DNA from: Alphaproteobacteria bacterium UBA3637
GTDB taxonomy: Bacteria > Pseudomonadota > Alphaproteobacteria > CAAHEQ01 > UBA3637
NCBI GenBank assembly: GCA_002373615.1
Contig: DFKU01000050.1
Coordinates: forward strand, 1-61,148
DNA length: 61,148 nucleotides
Direction: 5' to 3'
The notes beneath the pieces were generated by a model that did not search any database, was not told the origin of the DNA, and saw only the letters and a list, made by a program, of their open reading frames with translations. The position numbers and the translations under genes are program-made. Position 1 is the stretch's first letter. Each line of letters opens with the position of its first letter. Below are positions 15,065-60,647 of this stretch, piece by piece.

Positions 15065-15074
15065 TGATGTTAAA

Positions 15075-28173: not shown

Positions 28174-28185
28174 AAGAGGAATATA

Positions 28186-31942: not shown

Positions 31943-31943
31943 A

Positions 31944-34727: not shown

Positions 34728-35021
34728 TTATTCCTTGGGATACTTAGCTTTAATTTCGGCAATTTTTTGTTGCCATAGATTTGTGTTATTTACCTTATCC
34801 CAGTAAATCATATCTAATTGTTCAGCAATGACTGGATATTCAGCCAAACGTTTTTCTGCGTAGGTCGGCTCTGGTTTTATTGGGGTATATCCAGCAACAT
34901 ACCAAGCCCCATTATAGGCTTGTTCCACTTCCATTTGTGTAAAACCAGATGGAACATAATTTCCCAAAGCAACATCACATTGTTTTGTTGCATCATTTGT
35001 TATTTTGGCATACTTAAGCAT
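34728..35021 (-). CDS. Small phage-type protein downstream of the tail fibre (possible assembly or accessory protein)
   Basis: 97 aa. It overlaps the tail-fibre stop by 8 nt. The call rests on position only. Confidence 0.35.
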   Translation of the reverse strand: MLKYAKITNDATKQCDVALGNYVPSGFTQMEVEQAYNGAWYVAGYTPIKPEPTYAEKRLAEYPVIAEQLDMIYWDKVNNTNLWQQKIAEIKAKYPKE

Positions 35022-36027
35022 TTTGGGCTCCTTTCACCGGATAAAAAATCATAGAAAAGTAAGATGTTGTCTGAGTTGCTTGATAAAACATATCTTTTGG
35101 AATAGGAAAAAGCTTTGTTTCATTATTTGAACAGTTAAAATAATCTCCTGCCACTTCCGTTGGATTAGACATATCATTGTTAGCTGAATAATTTAAGACA
35201 AATGTAGCGGTTGAACCATTTCCTTGTCCTCGGATTGAAATCCAGCCATCTGATTCGGCTTGGTAAATTGTATCCAAAGATTTACTGACACCAGATGAAA
35301 AGTCCGGCATACTCAACGCTATAACGGCCTCTTTACCACCAGTAGAAAGGTTATCCATATCTTTATTAGCCTTTGAGGTAAGTATAGCTGTGGCTTCAGC
35401 TGCTTTTTCTGTGGCAATTTGAGCTTTTGTGGTGGCGATATCCGCTTTATCTGAGGCAATGGTTGCTTTTGTCGTGGCTGTACTGGCGGCGGATTCGGCG
35501 GCTGTTTTATATCCATTTAACGTACTTTCCAAAGCGTTTACCTCAACTGTTGAGTTTTCCAAGTTTGTTCCATCGGCATTCCATACGATGGCTTTTCCCG
35601 CACTGGGGCTTGGCAGGGTTAAATCCAAATCATTGTCGGTTGCATAAGGGGGCAAGACCATAGAGCGGTTTAAATTTTCCGCAATCTGTTGCTGGCAAGC
35701 TATTTGATAATCCAATTCGTCGTTCAGGACTTTTGCTCGAAGGGTCGAACCTTCTTGAAAATCAGATGTCCGTTCAATGGATAAGTTGCGTACGATAGTA
35801 ATAATTATCCCTGATTCTGGGGCTGATTCAAAGGCTACAGAGCCACCATCAGAATGACGTGCCTCTGAGACCGTATAAGTAGAGGTGTCTTGTTTTGTAT
35901 CCCCAAAATAAACCTCTATATCTGTTGTTTTAAAAATAGCAAACGGGAACTCGTATTCTGTCGAAGTTCCGTCTGCCGTATATTGTATCCTTGGCTTAAT
36001 ACCATAGATTTTTACATGTTCTGTCAT
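35014..36027 (-). CDS. Phage tail-fibre protein (T7 gp17-like N-terminal domain)
   Basis: N-terminus ...IQYTADGTSTEYEFPFAIFKTTDIEVYFGD... and FQEGSTLRAKVLNDELDYQIACQQQIAENL fit the podovirus tail-fibre N-terminal signature. It also has a central Ala/Thr/Lys coiled coil and a distinct C-terminal domain. Confidence 0.6.
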   Translation of the reverse strand: MTEHVKIYGIKPRIQYTADGTSTEYEFPFAIFKTTDIEVYFGDTKQDTSTYTVSEARHSDGGSVAFESAPESGIIITIVRNLSIERTSDFQEGSTLRAKVLNDELDYQIACQQQIAENLNRSMVLPPYATDNDLDLTLPSPSAGKAIVWNADGTNLENSTVEVNALESTLNGYKTAAESAASTATTKATIASDKADIATTKAQIATEKAAEATAILTSKANKDMDNLSTGGKEAVIALSMPDFSSGVSKSLDTIYQAESDGWISIRGQGNGSTATFVLNYSANNDMSNPTEVAGDYFNCSNNETKLFPIPKDMFYQATQTTSYFSMIFYPVKGAQNA

Positions 36028-36228: not shown

Positions 36229-36966
36229 ATGATTTTTAAAAATCTATCTATTTTTTGTTTAATTGCATTGGCGACACCCGCTTTTGCTGGCAATACTGAG
36301 ATTGCTTCATTTACAAAATCAAAAAAATTATTAACCAATGTTGTTTATGCAGGTCACAATGAAACCTTTTATTGTAAGGGACATTTTGATTTAAAGAACA
36401 ACATTATTTTGCCGGAAGGATTCCGGACACCCTCACATGAAAAACGGGCCTATAAATTGGAATGGGAACATGCTGTGCCGGCGGAAAACTTTGGGCGAGC
36501 TTTTGTTGAGTGGCGCGAAGGACACCCAGATTGCGTAGATTCCAAGGGGAAAGCCTTTAAGGGGCGCAAGTGTGCTGAAAAAATGAACAAAGAATTTCAA
36601 TTGATGCAGGCTGATATGCACAACCTGTATCCTGCCATCGGGGCGGTGAATGCCATTCGCAGTAATTTTCAATATGCAGAATTACCAACCACTGAAATCA
36701 CCTTTGGACAATGTCCCATGAAAATTGAGGGGAAAAAAGCTGAGCCCCCTGAATATACTAAAGGGGCTATCGCACGAACTTATCTTTATTTTGAAGAAGA
36801 ATACGCCCCTTTCCGCATGAGTAACACCCAAAAGAAAATGATGCAAGCGTGGGATAAAGTGCACCCCGTGGATGCTTGGGAATGTGAACGCGAACGCAGA
36901 ATTGAAAAGCTGCAAAAAAATGCCAATCGCTTTGTGAAAGAGGCATGTGAAAAAGCGGAACTATAG
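36229..36966 (+). CDS. endA: Periplasmic/extracellular endonuclease I family nuclease
   Basis: Signal peptide plus the EWEHAVPA and DMHNLYPAIGAVNAIRSNF motifs. Confidence 0.85.
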   Translation: MIFKNLSIFCLIALATPAFAGNTEIASFTKSKKLLTNVVYAGHNETFYCKGHFDLKNNIILPEGFRTPSHEKRAYKLEWEHAVPAENFGRAFVEWREGHPDCVDSKGKAFKGRKCAEKMNKEFQLMQADMHNLYPAIGAVNAIRSNFQYAELPTTEITFGQCPMKIEGKKAEPPEYTKGAIARTYLYFEEEYAPFRMSNTQKKMMQAWDKVHPVDAWECERERRIEKLQKNANRFVKEACEKAEL

Positions 36967-43531: not shown

Positions 43532-46500
43532 TTAAAAAAGAGGTTTGTCTTCCAATGGTACCGGTGCCACTTTTCGATCTGAAATATCCGGCATACGATC
43601 AGTGCCATCATAAATGGGCGTTTCCATTTCTTGTTGATTATTGGAAGGGATATCGGTATTAGAGGAAGCTGGCATTTTTTCATCCTGTTCTGAACGACGT
43701 TGTTGCGTCCATGAATTTATTCCCTGAGGTGTCTTGGCTTGGTATTCCGAATCGTCCTCTTCTTTCGGAGGATTTTTGTCCATATAATCCGCATCATCTT
43801 CTGGGGTTCGCAACCATAAATCCTGAGAAGGGAAGACGGTTAACCGAGTTCCTGAAGGAACAAAAATGACAGGAGGTGTTTGCTGAGCTTTAGCAATCAT
43901 ATCATCCAAAATATCACCTATTTTTTCGATGAATTGCTTGCGCGCATCATTCATTGCTTGAGAACGTTGAGACATTGTTTGAGATTGCGTTTGTTGTCCT
44001 GTTTGCATATTTGTTTGAACAGTCACTTCTTCATTCGTCGCCATTAAATATGAAACCGCAGAACTTGCCAGTGTAGACAAAACGGATGTCCCATATTTAT
44101 TCCATAACTGTTCATCCAAGTAGGCAGCGACCCCACCGCGCCCTTGTGCGTCCCCTGAATTTGATCCAGACAGATCGAAAGCAGAACCATCAGGTCGAAT
44201 TAACCGATTCCAAGAAATCTGAAGCTTTGCAACCCCATTGACTGCATTTTCACCTTCACCCCCAAATGTTCCAATTAAACGACTTCCTGCGGGAATTAAG
44301 ATATTGCGTCCTTCTTCCCCATAAATGTTTGTTTCAACGATCGCAATTGCAGGCACATCCGAATACCTGGAATCGATAGAACGCGCCAAAACTGCCGGAA
44401 TCGCCTTCCCCTGCAGGACAACATGTGTCATATCAACCGGCCAAGTGGAAATGGATTTTCCACTCACCCCGGCCTTTGTCCAATCTTTATCTTTTTTAGG
44501 TTTCGCCATTTCTTTTATTTTTGCAGAAATTTTAAGCGTACCAGCCCCACGTTCCCTTTGCGTTTTCATACCTTGACGACGTTTGTTAATTTTATCCGTA
44601 AAATCATCAATCTGTGCTTGCGTTGGTTTAAATGGCGTATGAATATCGGGACGTTCTCTGTTCCCAGAAACAGGATCCGACATTACCTTGTTATCCCATG
44701 TATAAGGACGTCCATCATCCCCTAAATATCCAATAATCATTCCACTTTCATCGGTTATCGTCCCATCTGAATTAACCATATAGGTGTTTGACCCAATATT
44801 GATAGCACGCGCAGGCCTATTTGATTTTCCCATACCAGACATACCACATTGCTTTAACAGTACAGAAACATCGATACCGCGAAAACTTTCAACATAGTTT
44901 CCATCTGGCGTAAAAACTTGCCCATCAGGGGTTACTGTATAAATCAAATCCCCATTTTCATCCCGCAATGTTCCATCAGCCATCAATGAAGCAATCTTTT
45001 GACCATCATATCCAACTAAATCACACCCAGAAAGGTACCCCAGGCCAGGAACATACGAGGTATGAATATCTGGCAGAGAATTACCCCATGGATCTGTGAG
45101 TTGCCCCTTTGGTGGCACAACAAATATGGGTTCTCCATTGGTTCCTTTCACTATATCATCACCTCCTTGGATATATTTTACAACACCCTCAGAATCTGAA
45201 AAAATGGTATTTTGTCCACCAACATTTATCCCTATTTTGTTCCCATTCCAATCATAAGCCGTACCAGATTCATCCACTTGACCAATATTACTTTCCCCAT
45301 TATAAATACTCCCATCTGAACGGGTCCAACCGATAATATTACCTTTCTCATCAATAATTACACCGCGTTCAACAATCGTACATAATTTTTCCCCGTTTGG
45401 TGCCAACATCTCACCAGAATTTGTGGCACACCCGATTTCAACCCCATTCAAATCCACCACAGTTGAATCAGGGAGGGTTCTCCCCATCAGTTGCTTCCCC
45501 GAAATACAGGGTTCATTATTTCTGACAACACGTCCTATTTTGGAACCATTGGCATCCACTGCCCACATATCACGTCCAATCCGCCCCACAACGGAACCTT
45601 GACCATTGATCACACGACCGTCATAAGCCGTTTGACCAACAATTTTACAATCATTGACCACTAATCCTTCCGGAATTAAAAAACCTTGAATACGTAGTTC
45701 ATCAATTTCTGACTCTGCATCATTCAACCGAACAAGTCCTGCATTGTCCACGCGCCCATGAACCTCCCCTTGATAAGAGATAACAGTCCCATCATAAGAG
45801 GCAATGCCCATTACATCCCCATCATTACTAACAGCGGACATAATCGGGAAAACACGCGCCACAACAGGGGGCTTTTGACCTGATTTATTTACAACATAAG
45901 CATTATCTGTGATACGGAATAATTTTTTAGCAGCATTATCAACAACATCCCCCAGGATGGTTGTACGTCCCAAAACTTTAAAACCTTGATTAAGTCCGAT
46001 CGGAAGGCCTTGTTGAACTGTATGACCTGCATAAGGCATACTGTTAAAGACAGCTTTTTCAGGCACACCTGCTACCGATCCATCCGGTAAAACACGCCCC
46101 GCAAAAACATTTTTATCCCCAACTATGGTGCCATCCACCGTAGAAACAACCCCATAATACGTTCCAATATCATCTACAATTCCCCCATTTGGCATAGTAT
46201 TTCCCAGCCACATATTGTCTGTTGAAAGCGCTGATCTGAAAGCCATTTTATTTCCAATTTGAATCCCTGATTTATAAACAGCCGCTGTTCCAGAAGTCAC
46301 CCCTGCAAAACTCCCACGTTTGTCAATGAATACATTAGGAGCATAAATACCTCCCATTAATTCCCCATTCGGAGAATAAACCAAGCCCGTCCCCGTCACA
46401 ATAGCTGTTTTTTTACCCGCTTTATAAATTTGTCCATCAGAAGCAACTGTACCAATCATCCCCAAGGTGGGCGTGATCGCCGCCCCAGAAGAAACCATTC

Positions 46501-49500
46501 CTCCTGATAATTGATTTGAGGTATTGAAATAATAACGATTCATCATAACCGACCCAATTGTTTTATCTGATCCCAAAGAAACGACTGATCCTGTTTCAGA
46601 AACAATTCCCAATACGCGTCCTGATTCAATGCTGGAAACAAAAGGAGAAGGTGTTTTTTCAAGCCCTATAATCATCCCTTTACTGGCAACATAAGGGTCA
46701 AAACCTGTTTGGGAAATCCTTAAACCATTGGCCTCTAAAATTTCCCCTGACGCACCAATAAAACCAACAGATTTAGAGGCCTCATTAAATGCTGTTGTTC
46801 CAAGGGTTAAAAAACGTCCAATTATTTGACCATTCACGTCAAAAACATGTCCGTCCAAACCAACTGAGCCAAGAACTCTTGTCCCATTTTCAATTTTTCC
46901 ATCTGCACGCAACCATCCCATTAATTGCCCATTGGTGTCTATGGCAATTCCCGGCGTTAAGATCTGACCTATAATGGCACCATCAGCATCATACAAGAAA
47001 GAACTATTTCCTATAACCGCAATCTGTTCCCCTTTGCCGGAGAGAACCTCACCTTGCGAGCTAACAGTCCCCAAATATTCCCCCATTGCGTCCACAACAA
47101 CGGCAGAACTCACAATATTTCCCATGAAATTTTGGGAAAGATCCAACGCTTCACCTGATGGTAAAATCGTTCCCGACATACGTCCATCTGGCGCATTCAG
47201 TTCCCCGTGAAAATTTGTCCATCCCACCAATTTACCATTTTTATTAACAAACGGAGCCAGTGAAATTAAGGATCCTTTAATGGTATTATCTTGTCCCAAA
47301 ATCAAGCCAGTACCAGAAACAGTCCCAATAAAATTACCTCTTATATCATTGACTTGAAATTGATAAGCTAAATCATTTGCCATTCCCGATAATTTAGGTT
47401 CAATAGATCCCACGAAGCCTTGAACAGAAACACCCACCGAAATTGATGGTGCCACTTGACCCAATATTTGATTTTTATCAGAAATGGCCAAGCCATTTGT
47501 CAAAACCCGGCCAATTTTAATTTGCCGATTATCCAAAATTTCAGCACGATTATTTGCAAAACCAACATACTTTCCATCGCTGGACAAAACCGGACCAACA
47601 GGAACAACACCTCCGACCAATTGTCCTTCCATATCCGTCACAGAACCATTTGCATGAATCGTATAATTTCCCATAGCATCTGGACCAATCAAAATCCCAT
47701 TTGCATTCAATGTTCCCAAAAAAGAACCATCTAATTTTATAAAAGTAGAACCTTCCGGAATTAATCTTCCGATAATATCTGTTCCTGTCTGATTGATGAC
47801 TGTAAAGCCCGGTAAAACACGACCTAATTGTCCCCCTGATTTATCTTTTAAGCTGCCTGTCAGTTGATTGTATTGACCCAAAATTTTACCGCTATCTGAA
47901 AACACTGTCCCAGAAAAGGGAACAACCCCTTTTAATTGACCTTTATCCCCAATAACCCAACCATTGAAATAAACATCCCCTAACCAATTTCCATTTTCAT
48001 CATAGGCTTTATTGCCAACAGAAGTCCCCCCCAAGGGATAACCATTTTCATCAACTATGACGCCCCTTGTATTTTGACTTAAAACTTGCAATTTTTTTTC
48101 ATAAACACACCCAATGATTTGGCCTTTATTATCCATAATCTGGCCATCCAAACGAACACGCCCAATCACTTGATTTTGTGCATTGATATAAAGCCCAAGC
48201 GGCGTCACTTCCCCGCTGATATCTCCTTGTAAATTTTGAACAGTCTTGTCTGGATTGACACATCCATTTTTTACTCCCTCCGTTGATACGACATCACCAT
48301 TCATAGAAATGAGCCCCAATAAACGGCAGCCTTCAGCTATGGCTGTTCCCCAAGGAACAATAGCCCCTATTTGTCTTTTTTTATCATCAACTGCTCTTCC
48401 ATCTGGCGTTATATGTCCCAGTTTTTTTAAAGATAAATTCACAACACTGCCATCTGGATAGACGGAGCCTGTATGAGTGCATCCCCCTGAGGTAATTAGA
48501 CCTTCAGGCATCAAAGACCCCACAAACGTTCTGTGTGCAAAAGCCGTTCCATCTGGATTCATAATACCAATTTGTGTCGCTTTAAAATTCAAGGCTTTTC
48601 CTTCAGAATTCACAAAGCCAATAGGAGTCCCCTCCTCATCAATGATAATACCTTCACGAATCACAGAACCCAATTCATTCATCTGATTATCGACAATGGA
48701 TCTATCCAATAAAACATGACCAACAGTTTGATCAAAAGAATCTTTCACCTCACCATTTAACTTTACTTCACCCAAGGAACGGCCACCGGCACCAACCCCA
48801 ACACCACGCGGCACAACACCACCAACCAATTCCCCTTTATCATTAATGGCAAACCCCATAGGACGCATAAAGGCTATTTTTACTTTTGACTCATTGACGA
48901 CAGAACCATCCGGCATAATAAGGCCTACGTAATTCCCCATGGAATCGATCACTGCCCCCCAAGGAGCAACAAAACCAATAGCATTTTTATTAGCATCAAT
49001 AACTTGGCCATCTACCCGCGGATATCCCATCACCTTTCCTTTGGCATCCACATATACAGCAATACCATTATTGACAACAAATTTTCCAAACACATTCCCT
49101 TGTTCATTCATGGCTGGCATTGCATAAATTGCCTTACCAACAATTTTAAAAGTTGTGGGATCAATAATCGTGTTATCGTTCAATAAACGTCCCACAACTT
49201 TTCCTTCGGGATTGACCACATCCCCATTTTTGGCAATATCCCCCATCAATTCATTTTTTAGATCCAAAGGAACTTTTTTAGGTTCTGTGATTCCTATAAT
49301 TTCACCGGTTTCTTTATTCTTTATCAAGCCTTCCGGTGTTTTTTCAGCATCCGGATTATTGGGGTCAACGGGTTTTCCATCAGGCCCCAATCCTTCTTCT
49401 GGACGAGCTTGCGCTTTTTCTTTTTCTTCACAACAAATCACACAATCTTTGGAATCTGTTGATTGTGCTTTCAGCATCACTGTTGTACGTTCTTTTCTGA

Positions 49501-50023
49501 ACACAGAAGGACTGTGTTCCTGCCATTCAATAACTAAAGTATTTTGAATATTACGCAGTGTTTTCGGAGCCCAAGACACGTTAATTGTACATTCTTCATC
49601 TTTTGCCAAACGTTCTTTCTCCATGCAGGATCCAGACAGAACAAAACCATCCGGTTGTTCTTCGATTAATCTTTTACTGATTAATCTGATTGGAGCATTT
49701 TCTGCTTTTAAAACAATCGGAGCCTCCGCCTCAGATCCAATTACAACGTTAGGCGTCATAACCACTTCTGATGGTGTGACAACAAGTTGCGCATCCCCTC
49801 TGGAACTTAAATTAGGCAAACCGGCTTCTTCCGTGCCATTCGGGTCAATCGGTTCAACTGTCCAATCTCCCGGATCCCTGCGCACCCTTTGAGTTGCTTG
49901 TTTGGGTTGCATGCGACACCAAGCCAACAAAAAGAGTAAAGCAATAACAAGCCCAAAAACCAACAACAAATAGTTGGTTCTGCGTTTGGATTGAGCTGAT
50001 AAACTTTCTCTATTTGGTGCCAT
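43532..50023 (-). CDS. virB10: Giant VirB10/TrbI-family protein (2163 aa) with a ~1450-aa repeat insertion
   Basis: N-terminal TM (YLLLVFGLVIALLFLLAW). C-terminal ~215 aa carry the TrbI/VirB10 core (AIPAVLARSIDS...IPAGSRLIGTF...ISWNRLIRPDGSAFDL...GDAQGRGGVAAYLD). The middle is built of ~17-aa G-x-[VI]-x-[DN]-x-x-G-x-x-[IV]-G units. Confidence 0.85.
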   Translation of the reverse strand: MAPNRESLSAQSKRRTNYLLLVFGLVIALLFLLAWCRMQPKQATQRVRRDPGDWTVEPIDPNGTEEAGLPNLSSRGDAQLVVTPSEVVMTPNVVIGSEAEAPIVLKAENAPIRLISKRLIEEQPDGFVLSGSCMEKERLAKDEECTINVSWAPKTLRNIQNTLVIEWQEHSPSVFRKERTTVMLKAQSTDSKDCVICCEEKEKAQARPEEGLGPDGKPVDPNNPDAEKTPEGLIKNKETGEIIGITEPKKVPLDLKNELMGDIAKNGDVVNPEGKVVGRLLNDNTIIDPTTFKIVGKAIYAMPAMNEQGNVFGKFVVNNGIAVYVDAKGKVMGYPRVDGQVIDANKNAIGFVAPWGAVIDSMGNYVGLIMPDGSVVNESKVKIAFMRPMGFAINDKGELVGGVVPRGVGVGAGGRSLGEVKLNGEVKDSFDQTVGHVLLDRSIVDNQMNELGSVIREGIIIDEEGTPIGFVNSEGKALNFKATQIGIMNPDGTAFAHRTFVGSLMPEGLITSGGCTHTGSVYPDGSVVNLSLKKLGHITPDGRAVDDKKRQIGAIVPWGTAIAEGCRLLGLISMNGDVVSTEGVKNGCVNPDKTVQNLQGDISGEVTPLGLYINAQNQVIGRVRLDGQIMDNKGQIIGCVYEKKLQVLSQNTRGVIVDENGYPLGGTSVGNKAYDENGNWLGDVYFNGWVIGDKGQLKGVVPFSGTVFSDSGKILGQYNQLTGSLKDKSGGQLGRVLPGFTVINQTGTDIIGRLIPEGSTFIKLDGSFLGTLNANGILIGPDAMGNYTIHANGSVTDMEGQLVGGVVPVGPVLSSDGKYVGFANNRAEILDNRQIKIGRVLTNGLAISDKNQILGQVAPSISVGVSVQGFVGSIEPKLSGMANDLAYQFQVNDIRGNFIGTVSGTGLILGQDNTIKGSLISLAPFVNKNGKLVGWTNFHGELNAPDGRMSGTILPSGEALDLSQNFMGNIVSSAVVVDAMGEYLGTVSSQGEVLSGKGEQIAVIGNSSFLYDADGAIIGQILTPGIAIDTNGQLMGWLRADGKIENGTRVLGSVGLDGHVFDVNGQIIGRFLTLGTTAFNEASKSVGFIGASGEILEANGLRISQTGFDPYVASKGMIIGLEKTPSPFVSSIESGRVLGIVSETGSVVSLGSDKTIGSVMMNRYYFNTSNQLSGGMVSSGAAITPTLGMIGTVASDGQIYKAGKKTAIVTGTGLVYSPNGELMGGIYAPNVFIDKRGSFAGVTSGTAAVYKSGIQIGNKMAFRSALSTDNMWLGNTMPNGGIVDDIGTYYGVVSTVDGTIVGDKNVFAGRVLPDGSVAGVPEKAVFNSMPYAGHTVQQGLPIGLNQGFKVLGRTTILGDVVDNAAKKLFRITDNAYVVNKSGQKPPVVARVFPIMSAVSNDGDVMGIASYDGTVISYQGEVHGRVDNAGLVRLNDAESEIDELRIQGFLIPEGLVVNDCKIVGQTAYDGRVINGQGSVVGRIGRDMWAVDANGSKIGRVVRNNEPCISGKQLMGRTLPDSTVVDLNGVEIGCATNSGEMLAPNGEKLCTIVERGVIIDEKGNIIGWTRSDGSIYNGESNIGQVDESGTAYDWNGNKIGINVGGQNTIFSDSEGVVKYIQGGDDIVKGTNGEPIFVVPPKGQLTDPWGNSLPDIHTSYVPGLGYLSGCDLVGYDGQKIASLMADGTLRDENGDLIYTVTPDGQVFTPDGNYVESFRGIDVSVLLKQCGMSGMGKSNRPARAINIGSNTYMVNSDGTITDESGMIIGYLGDDGRPYTWDNKVMSDPVSGNRERPDIHTPFKPTQAQIDDFTDKINKRRQGMKTQRERGAGTLKISAKIKEMAKPKKDKDWTKAGVSGKSISTWPVDMTHVVLQGKAIPAVLARSIDSRYSDVPAIAIVETNIYGEEGRNILIPAGSRLIGTFGGEGENAVNGVAKLQISWNRLIRPDGSAFDLSGSNSGDAQGRGGVAAYLDEQLWNKYGTSVLSTLASSAVSYLMATNEEVTVQTNMQTGQQTQSQTMSQRSQAMNDARKQFIEKIGDILDDMIAKAQQTPPVIFVPSGTRLTVFPSQDLWLRTPEDDADYMDKNPPKEEDDSEYQAKTPQGINSWTQQRRSEQDEKMPASSNTDIPSNNQQEMETPIYDGTDRMPDISDRKVAPVPLEDKPLF

Positions 50024-52504: not shown

Positions 52505-52681
52505 TTAACCAAGCCACTCAGGTAATTCGGGAGCTTTTTTCAATTCCAAACATGCACAGGGTGATTTTTTTAGTTCGGAATAATCTTTTCCAATCCCTAC
52601 AGGCTCTTGTTCATAAATGGAACCACACGCTACCAAGGCCAATACAGCCAATACAAGCAAAGTAACTGTTATTTTTTTCAT
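52505..52681 (-). CDS. virB7: VirB7-like small lipoprotein (58 aa), not in the ORF track
   Basis: My translation is MKKITVTLLVLAVLALVACGSIYEQEPVGIGKDYSELKKSPCACLELKKAPELPEWLG, with lipobox L-V-A-C. It sits between the two virB8 paralogs. Confidence 0.6.
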   Translation of the reverse strand: MKKITVTLLVLAVLALVACGSIYEQEPVGIGKDYSELKKSPCACLELKKAPELPEWLG

Positions 52682-53400: not shown

Positions 53401-54960
53401 TTAGAATTGACAATTTGCCAACAACGGCATATTTTCACGTTGTTTATCCATAACGGAATTAATTTGCTGATATGATTCCGCTATAATTTTATCCGTTGAC
53501 TTTTTTTCCCGCATCAACTGATCCACATTGATCGCATTGGTTTGCGTCAAATAGACTGAAGCTCCTTCATCTTTTTCCAGTGCCATCAAAGCAAGACGTT
53601 GTTGAACTGTTGGCGACATTTGAGAAACATGCAGTGTCTCTGACATATCAGCTGTGGCAGTTTGAGCTTCTGCTGACAAACGTGCGCGTTTTTGTGATTT
53701 CAATCGTTCACGACGTGCCACATAATCTGGATTTTCTTTGTCTTGTTTTTCTAATTGTTCTGTGTATTTATATGCTTCTTCAATAGCTTTTTTCTTCAAT
53801 TCTTTCAACTGTTTTTGAACACGCACATAATGTCCACGATTAGAAATATCAAAATCTGTTGTGTCTATTCCCAATTCATTCAACTTTTCAATAAATGGTT
53901 GAACCATTTTTTGTTGAGCTGCGGCAGTTCCTAGACTTCCTTTATCCATTGCATCAACCACCAAAGTTATTTCATATTCATTTTCTAAATCACTTTTTTG
54001 GCCAACTTTAGCTTCAACCGTTGGGGTCATACTTTTCCCAACAAACGCCTTTGACATTTCTCCGCCATCTGTATAATTTTTAAATTTATCATTTGACATT
54101 TTTTTCCATGGTTCCGGCAGCTCTGGAATTACATTTCCCGTCAAGGGATCAATTCGCACAATATCCTTCCAGTTAGGAAGTGCTTTGGGTGCTTTTGGCG
54201 GATTACCGCTCACCGCTGTTGGATTTGTTGGACGACGCCCCTGGCTGATTTCAGCGACATATGCTTTATGTGCTGATAAAACTGTATTATATTTTGCCGC
54301 ATTATGACGCGTTTCTTCATCCACTGCAGGGCGTCCCTTTAAAGGAGCACCGTATGCCACATTCAAATTTTCATAAAATTGATTCCATTCCTTTTCAAAC
54401 AAAGAAATTTGATCTTGCCATAAAGGAAATGATTCGCCAGAATTAACTTTTCCCCATTTTTCAGGGTTCGCATACACATCCATCATAATATCACGATTGA
54501 TTGTCCAACCGGCCATTTCATTTTGTTGGCGTTGTCGCAAGGACATTGTCAATTTATCTTGATTTTGATTTTCAATTTCCTTTTGTGAAACTTGACGTTT
54601 CTGCTCATAAGTAGCCATCATTTTTGACCAAACTTCTTCTGGGTTTTTAAAGACCTTCCCTAATTTTTTGACGTTGCAAGAGGTGATATTCTTTTGCATT
54701 TCTTTAAAAAGTTCCCCTTGTTTTTTCAAATTTGCAGAAGTTTGAGCCGTATCACGCAACCCAGGCATTTCATTCATTAAATTATGAATTAAAAATGCTT
54801 TTTCTAAAGCTTCATTTTCATCTGTTAAATATGTTGTAACTTGTATAGATTGAGGCTGAGGAGCACGGCTGGCACGCAAAGTAATACTGGCCATTGAAGG
54901 AAAAGAAATCAATCCAGCCAACATTAAACAAACACCTAAAGAAATCGTTTTTTTATACAT
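53401..54960 (-). CDS. Secreted coiled-coil protein (519 aa), T4SS-operon associated
   Basis: Signal peptide MYKKTISLGVCLMLAGLISFPSMA. Lys/Glu/Gln-rich helical regions. I see no VirB motif. Confidence 0.55.
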   Translation of the reverse strand: MYKKTISLGVCLMLAGLISFPSMASITLRASRAPQPQSIQVTTYLTDENEALEKAFLIHNLMNEMPGLRDTAQTSANLKKQGELFKEMQKNITSCNVKKLGKVFKNPEEVWSKMMATYEQKRQVSQKEIENQNQDKLTMSLRQRQQNEMAGWTINRDIMMDVYANPEKWGKVNSGESFPLWQDQISLFEKEWNQFYENLNVAYGAPLKGRPAVDEETRHNAAKYNTVLSAHKAYVAEISQGRRPTNPTAVSGNPPKAPKALPNWKDIVRIDPLTGNVIPELPEPWKKMSNDKFKNYTDGGEMSKAFVGKSMTPTVEAKVGQKSDLENEYEITLVVDAMDKGSLGTAAAQQKMVQPFIEKLNELGIDTTDFDISNRGHYVRVQKQLKELKKKAIEEAYKYTEQLEKQDKENPDYVARRERLKSQKRARLSAEAQTATADMSETLHVSQMSPTVQQRLALMALEKDEGASVYLTQTNAINVDQLMREKKSTDKIIAESYQQINSVMDKQRENMPLLANCQF

Positions 54961-54968
54961 CTTCCCCC

Positions 54969-55805
54969 CTATTTATTTTTATCATCACCCAAACCATAGT
55001 TTTCAATTTCTGACGGTGTATTATTTTCACCGGCAGCGTTTTGAGGTGTCATTGGCTCAGGCCCTGATTGTAAAGCAGATTCATCGATTATTGCTTGCGT
55101 TGGAATTTTTGTTGTATCTATATCAGCTTCCATTGTTTCTGCACGAGCACGAACACGCGCAGCGATAACACGCTTACGTAATACCATCAAAGCATCCAAG
55201 ATCAAACGACGTGTCGCAACTGTACTGGCCGCATCGCTATAATCAGTATAACTGCCAGAAGAAACCTTCTCTGCAATGGCAGCCAATTCTGCATATGTCT
55301 TTTTCATGACCAAAGCGTCCGTCATGGCCTGAATAGCACGTTGCTGTGCACGATATTCAATCGCCCATTTATCTGCAGACAATTCATCCAAAGATGCCTG
55401 TCCTTTCATGATTTCCCTTGTTCTTAAATCTGCCAATTTCCCAATAGAGGTTTCTTGAATTTTAATATCTGATGGATAGGCGCCAAATTCCGCAGGAATA
55501 TCCGTCACGGATGAAGCAACTGCATTTAATACAAGTTTAGTTGAAATAGAACCTTTGTCACCAGTATAAGCTCCACCACAGCCACCTGAACGACCCTGTT
55601 CCCCTTCAAAAACCAATTTGGCTGTCAACTTCTGGTCATCTGTAAGAAAGTATTTAACAGCTGTAGATAACCCACGTCCGATGGCTCCAAATACATCAAA
55701 ACTGAGATAAGAAAACCGTTGTGCACAAACACCCGCCGCTTGAGCCCGAAACGTTCCTAAGATTAATCCCAATGAAATTAAAGCGATAAAAAATGTCTTT
55801 TTCAT
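54969..55805 (-). CDS. Secreted helical protein (278 aa), T4SS-operon associated (VirB5/TrbJ-like size and architecture)
   Basis: Signal peptide MKKTFFIALISLGLILGTFRAQA and a helical C-terminal half. Confidence 0.5.
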   Translation of the reverse strand: MKKTFFIALISLGLILGTFRAQAAGVCAQRFSYLSFDVFGAIGRGLSTAVKYFLTDDQKLTAKLVFEGEQGRSGGCGGAYTGDKGSISTKLVLNAVASSVTDIPAEFGAYPSDIKIQETSIGKLADLRTREIMKGQASLDELSADKWAIEYRAQQRAIQAMTDALVMKKTYAELAAIAEKVSSGSYTDYSDAASTVATRRLILDALMVLRKRVIAARVRARAETMEADIDTTKIPTQAIIDESALQSGPEPMTPQNAAGENNTPSEIENYGLGDDKNK

Positions 55806-55807
55806 AT

Positions 55808-56659
55808 CTATTTCCTTTCTGCACTGGTCGGTTTTGCTTCATTCATTAATTCAATAGGTTGACCGGATAAGAAATGAATTGCATCTGCCTCCATCATTTC
55901 AATTTGTAAAGCCAAGTCCACCAATGCCATTTTTACCATTTGTTCCAATGTATGGGCATCCACTGCAATAGATCCCAATTCCCCATCCCCTGACACAGCC
56001 GCAGAAGAAATACTTTCCAAATCATTTTGGATATACCCTTTGACACGATATCCCAACGAGATATGGCGACCCGCTGCTTCTTGAGTATACTTATTTCTTT
56101 GAGCACGAATTTTATTTTTATACTCTGTCGTTTTTTGTTCGGATTTTGTTGGGTCGGCAAAAAATTCCGTTTTTACTGCTGTTCTTATATTTGCACGGAC
56201 AGTTTCATTGTTTTTAGCAGAAGCAAGAGCCGTTTTTAAGGGCGAATATCCCACATTTCCTTCATTTGCCAAAATTTCCGCATTCACATAATCAAAGGCA
56301 GAACCAGAAAATTCAGAACCCGCAACTGAACCGGGGTTTAATTGTTCAGTGGTTGTATTCGTTGTTGCCGCAGATCCCCCCGCGCCACAGGCCTTTTGAT
56401 TATCCTCTTCCTGAGTAGCAATTAATTGGGCTTTAGATTCCCCATCCCCTGTTAAGGAAATAATGCCGGCAATAAGCCCTGTAATACTACGCACACTGTC
56501 TGTCGTCACATAAGGTTCTATCGGTACTGCTACAGCACCACACAAAGGAGTTTCACATGGACATTTAGCACTATATCCATTAGGAAGAAATGCCATTACC
56601 TCCTTGACCAAAAAAACACATCCTGCAAACGTTCCCAATAAAATCAGACTTTTTTTCAT
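55808..56659 (-). CDS. Secreted protein (283 aa), T4SS-operon associated
   Basis: The ATG at 56659 has RBS GGAGG. Signal peptide MKKSLILLGTFAGCVFLVKEVMA. Helical C-terminus ...LEQMVKMALVDLALQIEMMEAD. Confidence 0.5.
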   Translation of the reverse strand: MKKSLILLGTFAGCVFLVKEVMAFLPNGYSAKCPCETPLCGAVAVPIEPYVTTDSVRSITGLIAGIISLTGDGESKAQLIATQEEDNQKACGAGGSAATTNTTTEQLNPGSVAGSEFSGSAFDYVNAEILANEGNVGYSPLKTALASAKNNETVRANIRTAVKTEFFADPTKSEQKTTEYKNKIRAQRNKYTQEAAGRHISLGYRVKGYIQNDLESISSAAVSGDGELGSIAVDAHTLEQMVKMALVDLALQIEMMEADAIHFLSGQPIELMNEAKPTSAERK

Positions 56660-56660
56660 C

Positions 56661-57509
56661 TTATTCCTCCGTTTCATCAGACCCATCTATCAAAACAGGT
56701 CCTGTTTCGTTGATAATGCGCAGCCCTGACGCTTCCAAATCGCGCCCCATCAAGGCATTGACATCATTGATTTGACGATGCGTATCTAACACAATATCTG
56801 CCATACGATTATACAGTCCCGTCGGCGAGGTTTGTTTGTTGAAATTTTCAGCCAATTTTTCAAAGTGCTTCTCCAGAGATAGCGTTTCTTTATCGGTTGT
56901 TTTGGTATTTTCTTTTGATTTTTCATCTTCTGATTCTTCTGCGGTGGTTTGACTGTCTTTGGCATCTTGTTTAGCAGACATATTTAAAACCTTATCGGCC
57001 GTTGCAGAAGCCAAAGTAACCGATGCCAACAACCATTCATTTTGACGTTGCGTTGCACAACTTTTATCATCCAAATCGCAGTCCCCTTTTATCGCTGCAT
57101 CGGGTGTTTCAAATAAATATTCTTGTACAGCTTGACGCGTATTTTCAAATATTTTCTCATCAGAAACCTTTGTCAATTCTATTTGAGCTATCACCTGATC
57201 TGCGGTATACACAGTTGCCAATGATGAATCCCCAGAAGTTCCAGAGCTCCCCGAAGATCCTCCCCCTGAGCCCCCACCTAAAGCTTTCTCTAATTGTTTA
57301 ATGGCTTCACCGGCTTTGACGGTACGCTCCCCCAATTTTTCGCTGGTAACCCATGCATCCGCTCCTGTCGCTAGGGTCATTGCAGGGTCAATCCAGGCAT
57401 GCCAAAGCCAAGGAAAAGTTAAATTTTGGTTTCCTATGATAGGGAAGGAAAAAGCAGGCAAAGAAATAACCGCCACAATACCAGCCAAAACAATATTTGA
57501 TTTTTTCAT
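56661..57509 (-). CDS. Secreted protein (282 aa), T4SS-operon associated
   Basis: The ATG at 57509 lies 8 nt after AAGGAGG. Signal peptide MKKSNIVLAGIVAVISLPAFS, a Gly/Ser linker and acidic helical regions. Confidence 0.5.
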   Translation of the reverse strand: MKKSNIVLAGIVAVISLPAFSFPIIGNQNLTFPWLWHAWIDPAMTLATGADAWVTSEKLGERTVKAGEAIKQLEKALGGGSGGGSSGSSGTSGDSSLATVYTADQVIAQIELTKVSDEKIFENTRQAVQEYLFETPDAAIKGDCDLDDKSCATQRQNEWLLASVTLASATADKVLNMSAKQDAKDSQTTAEESEDEKSKENTKTTDKETLSLEKHFEKLAENFNKQTSPTGLYNRMADIVLDTHRQINDVNALMGRDLEASGLRIINETGPVLIDGSDETEE

Positions 57510-57522
57510 TATCATTGCCTCC

Positions 57523-58581
57523 TTAATCTGTTAACTCTGCTGTATCAGGGATTGCTCTGGCCGCTTCAATTGTTAGAACGGATCCTTGTAACATATTCCC
57601 TTGATTCAGGCGTTGCGCCAATTCCAAATTCATCATAGCCACAATTTTCATGGCCGCCACAGTATTCACCCCGGTTCCAATTATGGTACTCAAATCTTGA
57701 ACAGCGATTTTATTGGCTTCCCCATTTGTTGCAACTGCTATTAATTTTTTTCTTGTTTTGTCTCTTTCATCCTCTGACAAAGAGCTACTTTCATCATCTT
57801 CCATGGCTTGCTGCACAGATTTCAGACCCAATTCCGCATGGGCAATACCCGCCGTACCATAATTTTGTTCATTTTGTATTTGGCGTATAGCAACTTGGTC
57901 GCGTTCTTCTGAAGTCATGCTGTCATATTTTGAACAAACAGAATATTTTGCAGCACATGACCCTGCCCCCGGTATTTCATCGGAATCTTCCGTTGTTGAA
58001 GAAGCATTACTTTTTGATTGTAACCATTCCAAATCTTCTAAAATCTTTTCACGTGTTTCATCTGTGACAATTTCAGTCACCAAGGTTCCGACCCCAACGG
58101 CTTCGATCCCTACATTTTTAAGAGCCGCTGCCTGAAAAGGTAATTTTTGAAACATTGAATCATATTTGGTTCCGCCAGGACTCCCCTTATTTCCCGCACC
58201 ATTACTTTTGGCCGCCTTTTGATATTCATCCTGAGGTTTTGGTTTCCATTTTGTTGTCACATCTTTCATCGAATTTAAAACCATATATTCTGCTGTCAGT
58301 TGCGCGGGATCTATGTTGATAGCGGGAACATGTGGGGTTCCGATAGAAACGTAATATTCAGGAGGCTTAACGAACGAAATAACTGCCCCCAAAGCTCCCA
58401 AAGCAATTCCCGCATAGGGGCTGATGGTTGAAGCAGCCGTTCCTGCCGCTGTTTGGGCAACACCACCGGCAATCATACCCAGCGTACCGGTCTGACCAAA
58501 GGCTGTTGTCGAAATAATGGTACCAGCCATCAGCCCAACCATTAACGTTTCTTTGAATATATTCATACAAGATCTTTTCAT
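57523..58581 (-). CDS. Secreted/membrane-associated protein (352 aa), T4SS-operon associated
   Basis: RBS AAGGAGG. N-terminal signal-like segment, then a Gly/Ala-rich hydrophobic stretch (GMIAGGVAQTAAGTAAST...GIALGALGAVISFV). Helical C-terminus. Confidence 0.5.
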   Translation of the reverse strand: MKRSCMNIFKETLMVGLMAGTIISTTAFGQTGTLGMIAGGVAQTAAGTAASTISPYAGIALGALGAVISFVKPPEYYVSIGTPHVPAINIDPAQLTAEYMVLNSMKDVTTKWKPKPQDEYQKAAKSNGAGNKGSPGGTKYDSMFQKLPFQAAALKNVGIEAVGVGTLVTEIVTDETREKILEDLEWLQSKSNASSTTEDSDEIPGAGSCAAKYSVCSKYDSMTSEERDQVAIRQIQNEQNYGTAGIAHAELGLKSVQQAMEDDESSSLSEDERDKTRKKLIAVATNGEANKIAVQDLSTIIGTGVNTVAAMKIVAMMNLELAQRLNQGNMLQGSVLTIEAARAIPDTAELTD

Positions 58582-58592
58582 GTTCAGCCTCC

Positions 58593-60557
58593 TTATTGTG
58601 ATTCCCCCGGACGAATTGTAATACTTGGCGCCGGAGAACTGGGTTCGCTTGGGGTTGTTGTTTTTTCATCAATCGCATTTAAATTGACCGCCCCTTGCAA
58701 TCCTAATTGAACTGCTGATAAGGCCGCCCCGCGTGTGATTTCAAATAAAACAAGACGATCTGCATCCGTGATTGCACTGATGCCACCTAAACTGCCTTGA
58801 GCCCCATCAACTGCATCTTTAAACGCTTGTGCCCGATCATAGAATGTAGATGATATTGCATTTGATCCTTCCCCAATTTGGGTGGCAGCTGTCGCCCATT
58901 CTCCCAACAGTAAGGCTCTGCGTTTTCTGATTTCTTTTTGTTCATTTGTTGTTAATACATCCGCTGAGGGGGTGGAGGTCACTTGACCGGTCCCCGCTGA
59001 TTGCCCCCCTGAGGTTCCGGCAGACATAGAAATCGCAGGCGTCGATGTATTTTCTTTTGGTTTTTCTATATCTTTTGACAACAAGCTGATGTCAATTTTC
59101 CCCATATTTAACAAAGCAATTAAAGAATTTGCCGCCCCCGAAATCGTTGTGGCAGAAATAGGAGTATCGGGTTGCACCGTAGATGCCCCGGAAATAGGGG
59201 TACCTTGAGATTCACCCATAGGCTCTGCTCCTACTATTCTGACTTTTTTGGTGGCATCATCATGTTTATTGCCTTCCACAGCCTCCATAATAATCAAAAC
59301 GTACTGTGGCACATTGGATACACTGACGGGCGCCCAAAGACTTCCGGGCTCGGGAACTCCGCCAGCCCCACCTTCTCCACCTTCTGACGCATTTGGTTTT
59401 ATAGGCGTATCGGATTTTGCCTCTGGTGTATCTCCCATCGGTTGCAAATCTTTTGCTGGCACGGTTTGAGGTCCTGATTCACCTTGGATAGTCACATTAC
59501 CTTTGCCATCTGTACCTATCACCTGGACCGCAGTTCCATCATAACGAACCATATCCCCAACCTGTGGGTTCATAGGTGCTGTTGATGGAGTTGTTGCACC
59601 AGCTAAATCAGTTGAGTTTGAGGGAAAACGAGCCTGTGAAACATCATATTCATTAGCTACTCCACTACCGTCCGCATATCGAAAAGTCCCATCTGACATT
59701 TTATTGATAGTTGTTCCGTATTCTGTTGTCTTTGTATCCACAACAGTGGGAACAGTGGAACCACCAGCGGTACTACCAGCAGAGGCAGAAGTGGATGAAG
59801 CAGGAGCACCAGTCGGCTGCCAACCTTTTTCACTCCCCAAGTACACCAGCGTTTCATCAGTAGTATACTCACCAATTTCTGGAGACGAAGGAGTTGTTGT
59901 GGCTGAACCGCCACCAGCGCCAGCAGCAGAGGCAGGTGCAGAAGTGGATGAAGCAGGAGCGCCAGTCGGCTGCCAACCTTTTTCACTCCCCAAGTACACC
60001 TGCGTTCCATCAGTAGTATACTCACCAATTTCTGGAAACGAAGGAGTTGTTGTGGCTGAACCGGCAGTAGGGGTAGAGGCAGGTATAGGAGCGGGTGAAG
60101 TTTTTGTGGCTACATAACCAGGATCAGGAGCCCTATCAGCAAACGTACCACCACCAACAGCAGGGGTAGATGTAGTAGTGGATGAAGTAGTTGTGGCTGA
60201 ACCGGTCGTGCTAGTAGTAGTGGTAGCAGCAGTAGAGGCGGGCGCAGAAGTGGATGAAGCAACTGCAGCAGAACTCGCTTGTTGTGTTGTCATCCCTTGT
60301 GGCACTTGCCCCCAGTTTTTTCCATACCAAACAAAGTCAGTCGATTGGTTTCCTGAACTCACGGTTACCACTTGACCAACATGATCCCCACTAAAAGACG
60401 GCGCAGAAGGAGTGTTGACCTGAATTCCTCTAATACGAGCATTCGTCTCAGTTACAAAAGGATTTCCACTATAACCAGGAATGGGCGTTGCTCCATATCC
60501 AGCCCCAGACACCAACACTGTTCCCAACAATAAAACTTTTAAGAGATTTTTATGCAT
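58593..60557 (-). CDS. Secreted Ser/Thr/Ala-rich (mucin-like) protein with small beta modules, first gene of the T4SS operon
   Basis: The real start is the ATG at 60557 (RBS AAGGGGGA), with signal peptide MHKNLLKVLLLGTVLVSGAGYG. The upstream 'MPRQARHD...' extension in the ORF track is MITE sequence. Repeated IGEYTTD.T.VYLGSEKGWQPTG modules are separated by STA-rich linkers. Confidence 0.65.
   Translation of the reverse strand: MHKNLLKVLLLGTVLVSGAGYGATPIPGYSGNPFVTETNARIRGIQVNTPSAPSFSGDHVGQVVTVSSGNQSTDFVWYGKNWGQVPQGMTTQQASSAAVASSTSAPASTAATTTTSTTGSATTTSSTTTSTPAVGGGTFADRAPDPGYVATKTSPAPIPASTPTAGSATTTPSFPEIGEYTTDGTQVYLGSEKGWQPTGAPASSTSAPASAAGAGGGSATTTPSSPEIGEYTTDETLVYLGSEKGWQPTGAPASSTSASAGSTAGGSTVPTVVDTKTTEYGTTINKMSDGTFRYADGSGVANEYDVSQARFPSNSTDLAGATTPSTAPMNPQVGDMVRYDGTAVQVIGTDGKGNVTIQGESGPQTVPAKDLQPMGDTPEAKSDTPIKPNASEGGEGGAGGVPEPGSLWAPVSVSNVPQYVLIIMEAVEGNKHDDATKKVRIVGAEPMGESQGTPISGASTVQPDTPISATTISGAANSLIALLNMGKIDISLLSKDIEKPKENTSTPAISMSAGTSGGQSAGTGQVTSTPSADVLTTNEQKEIRKRRALLLGEWATAATQIGEGSNAISSTFYDRAQAFKDAVDGAQGSLGGISAITDADRLVLFEITRGAALSAVQLGLQGAVNLNAIDEKTTTPSEPSSPAPSITIRPGESQ
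59785..60063. repeat. 153-bp (51-codon) tandem direct repeat, about 1.8 copies, inside 58593..60557
   Basis: GCAGAAGTGGATGAAGCAGGAGC[A/G]CCAGTCGGCTGCCAACCTTTTTCACTCCCCAAGTACACC... recurs with offset 153 (59785 vs 59938). Confidence 0.8.
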
Positions 60558-60647
60558 AAATTCCCCCTTTTTATAAGTATACTTATCCACAGAGTACAGG
60601 GAAAAATGGTGGATGTCAAGGAATTTTTTATGTTTTAAAAAAAATGC

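Follow-up and report, generated by a model that had tools for sequence, protein, structure and literature searches.

VirB10 is the component of type IV secretion systems (T4SSs) that couples the inner-membrane energy centre of the machine to its outer-membrane pore. In the minimized systems, to which A. tumefaciens VirB10, pKM101 TraF, R388 TrwE and H. pylori ComB10 belong, the protein has several hundred residues, with a transmembrane (TM) anchor, a periplasm-spanning region formed by a short extended linker and a beta-barrel bearing an antenna, and its gene is flanked by virB9 and virB11. These minimized VirB10s have neither repeats nor a collar (10.1101/2023.03.22.533729). Up to now only two repeat-expanded VirB10s have been studied, namely CagY and DotG, and the repeats of both are unresolved and poorly predicted. 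The first one, CagY (Cag7, HP0527) of the Helicobacter pylori Cag T4SS, is a giant of 1927 aa whose repeats stand N-terminal to a canonical barrel and are encoded by DNA direct repeats recombining in frame. The other one, DotG (IcmE) of the Dot/Icm system (type IVB), has an N-terminal TM anchor, a repeat-rich middle part and a VirB10-like dome. In the present study we describe a third, independent type of repeat-expanded VirB10. Its gene lies on a contig of 61,148 nt from Alphaproteobacteria bacterium UBA3637 (DFKU01000050.1, assembly GCA_002373615.1), the whole of which is called the window hereafter, and its giant product of 2163 aa is predicted to carry an array of beta-hairpins between the membrane anchor and the barrel.

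For the two known expanded proteins, the repeat-rich middle domains have been proposed to form a periplasmic collar, which would be 13-fold in the case of DotG and which the unresolved CagY repeats would reach (10.1101/2023.03.22.533729). For the DotG repeats, the current description is a motif of 10 residues, [KR]-x-A-G-[FY]-[STND]-x-x-x-[LI], present in variable number and predicted with low confidence (10.1101/2023.03.22.533729), while those of CagY are alpha-helical modules (Delahay 2008, cited in PMC9371333). An earlier note on this DNA, made from the letters alone, had named DotG as the only precedent for a repeat-expanded VirB10 and had taken its repeats for pentapeptide-type ones; in view of CagY and of the 10-residue motif, neither statement can be kept. 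A precedent of another kind exists for the hairpin itself. The beta-flower (Durairaj et al. 2023; PMC10584680) comprises the Pfam families PF21785, PF21784 and PF21786 of clan CL0395 and is marked by a semiconserved [DNEQ]xxG motif at the hairpin tip. The beta-flowers described are small single domains of about 96 residues, in which 8, 10 or 12 strands close into a shallow barrel of 4-, 5- or 6-fold symmetry, and they often enclose a hydrophobic C-terminal helix or carry a lipobox; according to their authors they have no analogue in the Protein Data Bank (PDB), and no solved structure and no known function are on record (PMC10584680).

The gene in the window, whose features are collected in Table 1, is open without a break over 6.5 kb and sits in a tightly packed operon between the genes of VirB9 and VirB11. 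The VirB9 stop lies 10 nt upstream of its ATG with an AGGA motif resembling a Shine-Dalgarno sequence between them, and the VirB11 ATG follows 9 nt past its own stop. The full TrbI profile (PF03743) is matched at aa 1869-2071, i.e. nt 43811-44419, with 120.5 bits against a cut-off of 35 (E = 1e-34). Among PDB sequences the best match of the core is ComB10, at 4e-15 with the sequence and at 5e-26 with the family profile, and the chains matched are of 395-406 aa. Since the NCBIfam models T4SS_VirB10 and ComB10 give 106.2 bits against 220 and 104.8 against 300, which is below the equivalog cut-offs, the protein should be regarded as a family-level member of VirB10/TrbI and not as an equivalog. 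Foldseek aligns the predicted core, with TM-scores normalised to the target (TMt) of 0.46-0.51, to ComB10, CagY, pKM101 TraF, R388 TrwE, Xanthomonas VirB10, the DotG dome and chains of the F-plasmid outer-membrane core complex (2bhv, 6x6k, 3jqo, 7o3j, 6gyb, 9ngw, 7spc). By its TrbI domain, these barrel matches and the position of its gene, the protein is an intact VirB10 homologue, as the earlier note had recognised.

What distinguishes this protein lies between the anchor and the core. The short Pro-rich periplasmic linker typical of VirB10 is not kept; an immunoglobulin-like (Ig) domain and about 1550 aa of hairpins stand instead, and only short Pro/Glu-rich remnants are left at aa 41-78 and aa 200-225. 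The hairpin units follow the consensus G-x-[VAI]-[VIL]-[DN]-x-x-G-x-x-[ILV]-G-x-[VI]-x-P-D, in which a strand of 5 residues leads through a [DN]xxG turn into a second strand of 3-4 residues; position 5 is D or N in 60% of the units and position 8 is G in 61%, and aromatics are scarce (0-16% per position), so that no conserved aromatic platform is seen. The autocorrelation of aa 260-1740, computed with BLOSUM scores, has its maximum at lag 17 (z = 16.4, from 200 shuffles). An iterated 17-column position-specific scoring matrix, calibrated on shuffles and used in place of a 17-column HMMER model which under-counted the units, finds 76-77 in-register units in aa 250-1787 against about 13 in shuffled sequences, and 52 of the spacings are exactly 17 residues. 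An old duplication of a block of 9-10 units is also visible by autocorrelation in aa 250-650.

Two models of the protein were made with AlphaFold2 (AF2), covering aa 41-1100 and aa 1051-2163, and they agree where they overlap. Within aa 226-1775 they contain 167 strands forming about 84 hairpins, with a per-residue confidence (pLDDT) of about 85-95, and this region is practically free of helix by DSSP in both models; the whole-model pLDDT and predicted TM-score (pTM) are 84.9 and 0.75 for one and 77.1 and 0.62 for the other. For the array, the models thus give a highly confident prediction of an all-beta fold. By profile, PF21785 (Bflower_2) reaches 161.8 bits against a cut-off of 38 in nine stretches of the array and PF21784 (Bflower) 28.9 bits against 25. 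By score and motif the repeat belongs to the beta-flower families, where the closed barrel and the enclosed helix are not part of the match. No solved analogue of the array was found in the PDB by sequence, profile or fold, and the PDB sequences matched in the profile search are VirB10 cores alone. The earlier note had counted about 85 repeats and quoted four example units, which indeed sit at aa 339, 356, 373 and 390. It had also placed the repeats correctly between anchor and core, while the extent of about 1450 aa it had given falls short of the one found here.

Regarding the DNA and the family, the units turn out to be conserved one by one. In the family alignments, of which sets of 35 sequences were used for structure prediction, the columns that hold the Gly residues of each unit are invariant. 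Within the giant VirB10 the units are 18.5% identical to one another. The unit at the same position in orthologues shows 66, 46, 38, 35 and 25% identity as the overall divergence rises, against a steady 17-21% for the neighbouring unit of the orthologue, which means that the hairpins are individually conserved and positionally orthologous, without concerted evolution. The array is under clear purifying selection. No tandem DNA repeats were found in the gene by TRF, and direct DNA matches within it extend over 18-35 nt only, nearly all at 65-86% identity, which bears out the earlier statement that the repeats are not recent and have diverged in their DNA. A set of twelve Cys residues, each kept in 83% or more of the sequences, forms the apparent pairs 133/145, 194/197, 515/566, 588/639, 1459/1532 and 1667/1726; two of the conserved pairs occupy the same unit position exactly three units apart, and the pairs as a whole suggest disulfide stapling.

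The number of units is less constant than their identity. The 85 homologues compared have 2133-2432 aa and 73-99 units; in the 80 loci considered below, complete single-chain proteins have 75-117 units and split ones 104-150, and no complete family member below about 75 units was seen. In three fragments from other subclades (P0151, P0147 and P0166), near-identical tandem super-repeats of three hairpins, about 52-62 aa long, were observed, which suggests that arrays grow by three-unit modules.

The regions outside the array complete the picture, and all four which the earlier note had distinguished are present. Its beta-rich domain is the Ig fold at aa ~79-190, and the nt 43800-44458 which it had given for the core fit the TrbI match. 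The topology is probably N-in, judging from VirB10 biology and from the N-terminal part of the split relatives described below, which is basic on the N-side and acidic on the C-side of the TM helix. The Ig domain is modelled with a pLDDT of 80-92 and has weak Pfam matches to ASH and Cep192_D4; its Foldseek matches, with TMt of 0.57-0.74, are HYDIN 2e6j (0.74), 2ys4 and CEP192 6fvi. The basic linker behind the array has a conserved KRxxMR motif in the family consensus, and its modelled helix at aa ~1802-1825 may be the counterpart of the VirB10 lever-arm helix. The core is the best-conserved region of the protein (52-93% identity), followed by the array at about the level of the Ig domain, and the antenna, whose sequence varies among relatives, and the tail are lowest. 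At the very C-terminus (window 43535-43600, minus strand) a motif ...R.V.PV.P.......LF occurs in every family member including the split ones, in the variants PLF, PELF, PALF and PQLF; ordinary VirB10 relatives of about 600 aa are without it.

As for the distribution, a word-indexed search of 5.8 billion proteins with the giant VirB10 returned 152 matches. Full-length clusters of 2063-2609 aa with the same Bflower and TrbI architecture number more than 100, at identities from 89% down to 27%, and come from assemblies at NCBI, ENA, JGI and Logan, where they bear names such as 'MAG: TrbI/VirB10 family protein', 'DUF3659 domain-containing protein' or 'hypothetical protein' and are assigned to Alphaproteobacteria bacterium. 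A scan of species-representative genomes gave 301 relatives, and all locus counts in this study rest on the best 80 loci. These are all from metagenome-assembled genomes (MAGs) with contigs of up to 391 kb, recovered from human gut (Hadza, Nepal, UMGS and HGM) and from yak, goat, sheep, roe deer, buffalo, horse, rabbit and rumen samples. The architecture is common to at least 80 species-level genomes of uncultured gut Alphaproteobacteria. The earlier note had pointed to Rickettsiales and Holosporales, and the carriers found in gut and rumen cannot be assigned demonstrably to those orders. The submitter labels Rhodospirillales and Azospirillaceae on distant members are leads only, and the same holds for the reduced-genome gut Alphaproteobacteria Rs-D84/Enterousia (PMC12306168) as the host clade. 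Four bins (L027, L034, L047 and L068) are labelled Holdemanella, Lactobacillales or Lactobacillaceae; they hold the same alphaproteobacterial T4SS module, and these Firmicutes labels are thus probably binning or labelling errors. In the literature searched, with Pfam identifiers and candidate clade names among the terms, no description of a hairpin-array VirB10 was found. The sequences themselves are public under generic names.

To trace where the array came from, the core (aa 1790-2163) was compared by phmmer with 1.84 billion representatives, giving 6138 matches, 103 of them at E <= 1e-30. Matches above about 160 bits are members of the giant family, C-terminal parts of split forms or fragments, and below these come VirB10s of about 500-630 aa. 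Entries of 670-1300 aa were considered as intermediates and rejected: all of them start mid-repeat and are thus truncated fragments, so that no true intermediate was seen among these representatives. The ordinary relatives, of about 580-630 aa, have the N-terminal tail, TM helix, Ig domain, Pro-rich linker and TrbI core, and no Bflower match was obtained in those of about 600 aa. Microvirga tunisiensis WP_152714064.1 (603 aa), which by its core sequence is among the closest relatives outside the giant family, shares the tail, the TM helix, the Ig domain with its Cys pair and the TrbI core; VirB10s of this type differ in having the Pro-rich linker where the window protein has some 1550 hairpin residues. 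The Ig domain is homologous to that of ordinary VirB10s (E = 8e-8, for P0179, and 0.002), with the same Cys pair. Being common to the ordinary relatives, the Ig domain is ancestral, and it is the Pro-rich linker whose place the array took.

Compared with the known systems, the window protein shares with the minimized VirB10s the anchor, the periplasm-spanning region, the barrel with antenna and the virB9/virB11 flanks, and differs from them in its length, its Ig domain and its repeats. Like it, CagY is a giant with repeats N-terminal to the barrel; the CagY barrel (6x6k, 6x6s, 6odi) matches that of the window protein at TMt ~0.5, and the Cag system is an expanded type IVA system in which VirB9 is enlarged as well (PMC9371333). 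However, the array of the window protein is made of all-beta 17-residue hairpins without DNA repeats and with strict positional orthology, CagM and Cag3 are not nearby, and the VirB7 of the window is small. With DotG it has in common the anchor, the repeat-rich middle and the dome (9ngw, TMt 0.51), but the DotG model NF033900 scores 15.1 bits against a cut-off of 750, the gene context is VirB7-B11 and not Dot/Icm, and the array is about three times longer and confidently predicted. Long beta-hairpin meanders are also found in the Rhs/YD shells of teneurin, Tc toxin BC and T6SS Rhs effectors, and it is only to 8fia, 7pq5 and 8qjc that Foldseek aligns the array over hundreds of columns (E = 1e-6 to 6e-10). 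There is no global fit to these shells (TM 0.07-0.11, rmsd 28-33 Angstrom), and an Rhs core, an aspartyl-protease domain and a toxin domain are all missing from the window protein; some relatives match PF05593 (RHS_repeat) near threshold, the window protein not at all. Membership in the CagY type, in DotG and in Rhs was accordingly rejected on the all-beta array, the NF033900 score and the absence of an RHS_repeat match. With the beta-flower the array shares the hairpin repeat by profile score, the tip motif and the lack of a PDB analogue, and it departs from it by about 84 hairpins without linkers or helices, by a shorter unit of 17 aa and by a TM anchor where no lipobox is present.

A natural variation of the gene bears on how the array is built. 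Eleven distant loci (L065, L066, L068, L069, L072-L075 and L077-L079) encode VirB10 as two adjacent genes, for example L072:9962-13303 and 13307-17854. The first product, part A, has about 1100-1400 aa with the N-terminal tail, the TM helix and hairpins, up to a conserved end ...GY[AV]LQEVAKNRRN. Part B starts 0-17 nt after it and has a typical Sec signal peptide with an AxA-type cleavage site; directly behind this come the hairpins (QEITAIDFNGD...), then the TrbI core and the ...LF terminus common to the family. On the window protein this junction maps to mid-array, near aa 946, where the repeats of single-chain relatives run straight through. In a neighbour-joining tree of VirB11 the split genomes group together in a single clade; its sister clade is single-chain, and under midpoint rooting the split clade is nested among single-chain forms, the tree being without an outgroup; a single derived fission would be the simplest reading. 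The signal peptide of part B implies that Sec carries the C-terminal half-array to the periplasm, and the split forms imply that covalent continuity from inner to outer membrane is not obligatory. Of the two places offered in the earlier note, the periplasm is supported by this signal peptide and by the Cys pairs, while an extracellular place is topologically unlikely. Another arrangement was observed on a 1.6-kb contig of a close relative, whose VirB11 N-terminus is about 90% identical: L085:3-1644 shows the end of a hairpin-like open reading frame (ORF), a gap of 110 nt and a core-only VirB10 of 381 aa (P0122) that has a signal peptide of its own. The gene may have been split here a second time, independently, but one short contig is too little to make the call.

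In the light of these results, and by analogy with the collars proposed for DotG and CagY, we hold it reasonably probable that the array is a rigid periplasmic middle domain which forms a collar or cage in the VirB10 of a VirB-type (type IVA) system. In this proposal the giant VirB10 would be a subunit of a chromosomally encoded type IVA system in an uncultured gut alphaproteobacterium, in whose lineage an array of about 84 hairpins of the beta-flower/DUF3659 type would have replaced the linker. The array would very probably occupy the periplasm, with the inner-membrane anchor at one end and the outer-membrane barrel at the other, and would act there as a rigid structural middle domain coupling the inner- and outer-membrane halves of the machine; some 14 copies of 1550 aa would add up to a very large collar or cage of roughly 2.4 MDa. 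The conservation of single units, the Cys pairs, the pTM values and the absence of DNA repeats all fit a fixed architectural element and argue against a variable module like that of CagY.

Several points weigh against this proposal and have to be set beside it. VirB4, VirB6, VirB2/3 and VirD4 were not found in the 61-kb window, nor in L081, L083 and L084 among the genes called up to 10 kb away; VirB4, VirB6 and VirB2/3 were not found either among those large ORFs which were examined in the remaining locus flanks, and the system is thus a putative one in completeness and activity. The 14-fold stoichiometry is assumed from other systems. Basic residues flank the TM helix of the giant VirB10 on both sides, which makes the positive-inside rule ambiguous for the window protein. 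A 5-unit period was sought in the array by sequence and profile autocorrelation and is absent, nor is there a clear 3-unit period; covariation by separation rises weakly near 2 and 3 units, with no such rise at 4-5. As a flat ribbon, the 167 strands would measure about 80 nm and outrun a typical periplasm, therefore compaction of the array has to be assumed, be it as tandem closed flowers, as an open superhelix or in another form. At last, a unit number that spans two-fold (75-150) in the family makes a strict ruler function unlikely.

The hairpins might instead give the machine a multivalent hold on peptidoglycan or on some other glycan of the envelope, by which it is fixed or spaced in the wall, an explanation we regard as unlikely. 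Weak cross-matches of relatives to MORN_2, the weakly SPOR-like C-terminal ~80 aa of VirB9 and an SH3_3/SH3_4 protein encoded just downstream in close relatives would agree with it, but the SPOR match is below threshold (E = 0.003), no wall-binding family of Pfam or NCBIfam is matched, and the aromatic-poor units lack the platform typical of choline-, glucan- or peptidoglycan-binding hairpin repeats. Moreover, the conservation of each unit among orthologues fits specific protein-protein packing better than generic multivalent binding.

Quite improbable, in our estimate, is an extensible or elastic tether by which the outer-membrane complex moves off the inner membrane or the height or width of the channel changes. 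Such a role has been speculated for the DotG collar, which would allow expansion of the machine (10.1101/2023.03.22.533729), and it would be in keeping with the two-fold variation of array length and with the natural split, where the inner- and outer-membrane parts need no covalent join. Against this, the high pLDDT and the pTM of both models favour a defined rigid fold, the Cys pairs suggest stapling, and beta-meander sheets are not known as spring elements.

It would be more surprising still if the array were a surface-exposed, antigenically variable or adhesive module like the middle repeat region of CagY, even though CagY is the best-known giant repeat-bearing VirB10 (PMC9371333) and the near-identical three-hairpin super-repeats of other subclades could recombine. 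The window gene has no DNA repeats usable for recombination, its units show positional orthology without concerted evolution, the topology sets the array between the two membranes, and the Sec-only signal on part B is a periplasmic and not a surface address.

That the long ORF arose when VirB10 and an unrelated repeat protein were joined by misassembly, or is a decayed pseudogene, has a practically negligible chance: MAG-derived sequences can be chimeric and a few related bins carry implausible labels, but the same domain order and similar length recur in more than 100 clusters from independent assemblies and in the 80 species-representative genomes with conserved synteny, and the frame is open with operon-like junctions and an array under purifying selection. 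The earlier note had likewise judged the repeats to be no assembly artefact, and had reckoned with a known repeat family unrelated to secretion being joined by misassembly; of this, the known family holds true (PF21785/PF21784, with no known link to secretion) and the misassembly drops out.

Returning to the rigid periplasmic collar or cage, the wider proposition may be put forward only tentatively that these VirB10s define a third class of expanded T4SS, with a foldable array of at least 1500 residues, a multi-MDa cage of about 14 copies, a VirB10 for which the span of both membranes by one polypeptide is dispensable and a first context for the beta-flower. If true, the cage would have no counterpart in the Cag and Dot/Icm machines, and in the split forms an inner-membrane half-array would dock non-covalently onto a Sec-exported half-array bearing the outer-membrane barrel. 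The orphan beta-flower/DUF3659 hairpin would gain its first functional context, being placed in a defined cellular machine. Beside CagY and DotG, the giant family would then be a third solution, evolutionarily independent, all-beta, confidently predicted and strongly conserved, and it offers natural experiments in the mid-array fission with a new signal peptide, in lineages of 75-150 units and in array-free ordinary relatives. Since the module is a conserved chromosomal feature of a widespread gut group, some members of which are thought to depend on partner cells, the VirB machine of these human and livestock gut bacteria may be central to their lifestyle.

Table 1. Features of the giant VirB10 gene and of the adjoining VirB module (window coordinates)
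Feature	Position (nt)	Strand	Evidence and remarks
Giant VirB10 gene	43532..50023	-	Single open frame, 2163 aa + stop; Pfam matches TrbI, Bflower_2, Bflower; >100 full-length homologues
N-terminal cytoplasmic tail aa 1-18 (with KRR) and single hydrophobic TM helix aa 19-36	49916..50023	-	Translation; motif and TM helix kept in family consensus
PapD/ASH-like Ig domain, aa ~79-190, conserved Cys133/Cys145	49454..49789	-	AF2, Foldseek, weak Pfam
Predicted array of ~84 17-residue beta-hairpin units, aa 226-1775, ~1550 aa	44699..49348	-	Periodicity, scoring matrix, Pfam, AF2
Basic linker aa 1788-1859, pI 10.3, long helix aa ~1802-1825	44447..44662	-	AF2 helix, charge
TrbI/VirB10 C-terminal beta-barrel core, aa 1860-2075	43799..44446	-	PF03743, PDB sequence, Foldseek
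Predicted antenna: two ~30-residue helices aa 1967-1996 and 2019-2048, Gln-rich disordered loop between	43880..44125	-	AF2
Disordered acidic Gln-rich tail, aa 2076-2163, pI 4.2	43535..43798	-	AF2 (pLDDT <50), charge
VirB11 ATPase, 333 aa	42521..43522	-	Pfam T2SSE, NCBIfam VirB11 (E = 9e-44); adjoins VirB10 in 78/80 loci
Enlarged VirB9/CagX-like protein, 561 aa	50034..51719	-	Pfam CagX (E = 4e-14)
VirB8, 246 aa	51777..52517	-	Pfam VirB8 (E = 3e-13)
VirB7-like lipoprotein, 58 aa, lipobox LVA|C	52505..52681	-	ORF and sequence
Second VirB8-like paralogue o219, 219 aa	52754..53413	-	BLASTP against VirB8: 30% identity over 142 aa, E = 3e-10
Secreted protein o519, 519 aa, conserved part of module	53401..54960	-	Signal peptide from translation; 49/80 loci

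The gene order VirB8'-VirB7-VirB8-VirB9-VirB10-VirB11, with a VirB9 of 500-620 aa, is kept in 71-78 of the 80 loci, and the flanks of this module are housekeeping genes that differ by subclade. Among the VirB9s of 75 of the 80 loci, nearly all complete copies have that length, which is roughly twice the minimal VirB9; the window copy, for which no PDB sequence match was found, carries a low-complexity insert. The VirB7-like gene overlaps the VirB8 start by 13 nt, and a gene for 58-65 aa is called at the same position in L081, L083 and L084; its small lipoprotein is the probable VirB7 equivalent. The second VirB8-like protein, o219, is found in 54 of the 80 loci and annotated with PF04335 in L083 and L084.

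On the VirB8 side of the module, the minus strand at 53401-60677 holds six consecutive ORFs resembling signal-peptide proteins or lipoproteins (519, 278, 292, 284, 352 and 694 aa), none of which, o519 included, has a Pfam match. Only o519 is widely conserved; the others are fast-evolving or replaced in other subclades, and the six could be pilus, adhesin or effector proteins. The ORF of 694 aa (58593-60677, minus strand) contains tracts rich in Ser, Thr and Ala, and a segment of about 45 aa is duplicated within it almost perfectly (GSATTTPS[FS]PEIGEYTTD..VYLGSEKGWQPTGAPASSTSA), and its region shows long spurious ORFs on the opposite strand and in another frame of the same strand. In L076 an upstream ORF has a VirB5-family domain; it is non-homologous to the upstream ORFs of the window, in which no similarity to this VirB5-like protein was detectable. 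Besides, L011 encodes at 20001-22193, 3.5 kb downstream of its giant VirB10, a VirD4/TraG coupling protein of 730 aa (T4SS-DNA_transf, E = 1.7e-52), which is the sole type IV coupling protein seen near any of the 80 loci.

Beyond VirB11, the window has dut and an SH3-domain protein, and the rest of it is ordinary chromosome with typA, GGDEF, surA, glgB, glgX, a glycosyltransferase cluster and tRNA-Glu. A protein of 337 aa with a phage T7 tail-fibre N-terminal domain (E = 3e-8) is encoded at 35014-36027 on the minus strand next to an endonuclease I gene (36229-36966, plus strand), in a context that is otherwise chromosomal. Seven glycosyltransferase-type genes at 27004-34684 (plus strand) have a GC content of 0.32-0.36 against about 0.40-0.47 elsewhere, and this cluster is possibly a horizontally acquired surface-polysaccharide locus.

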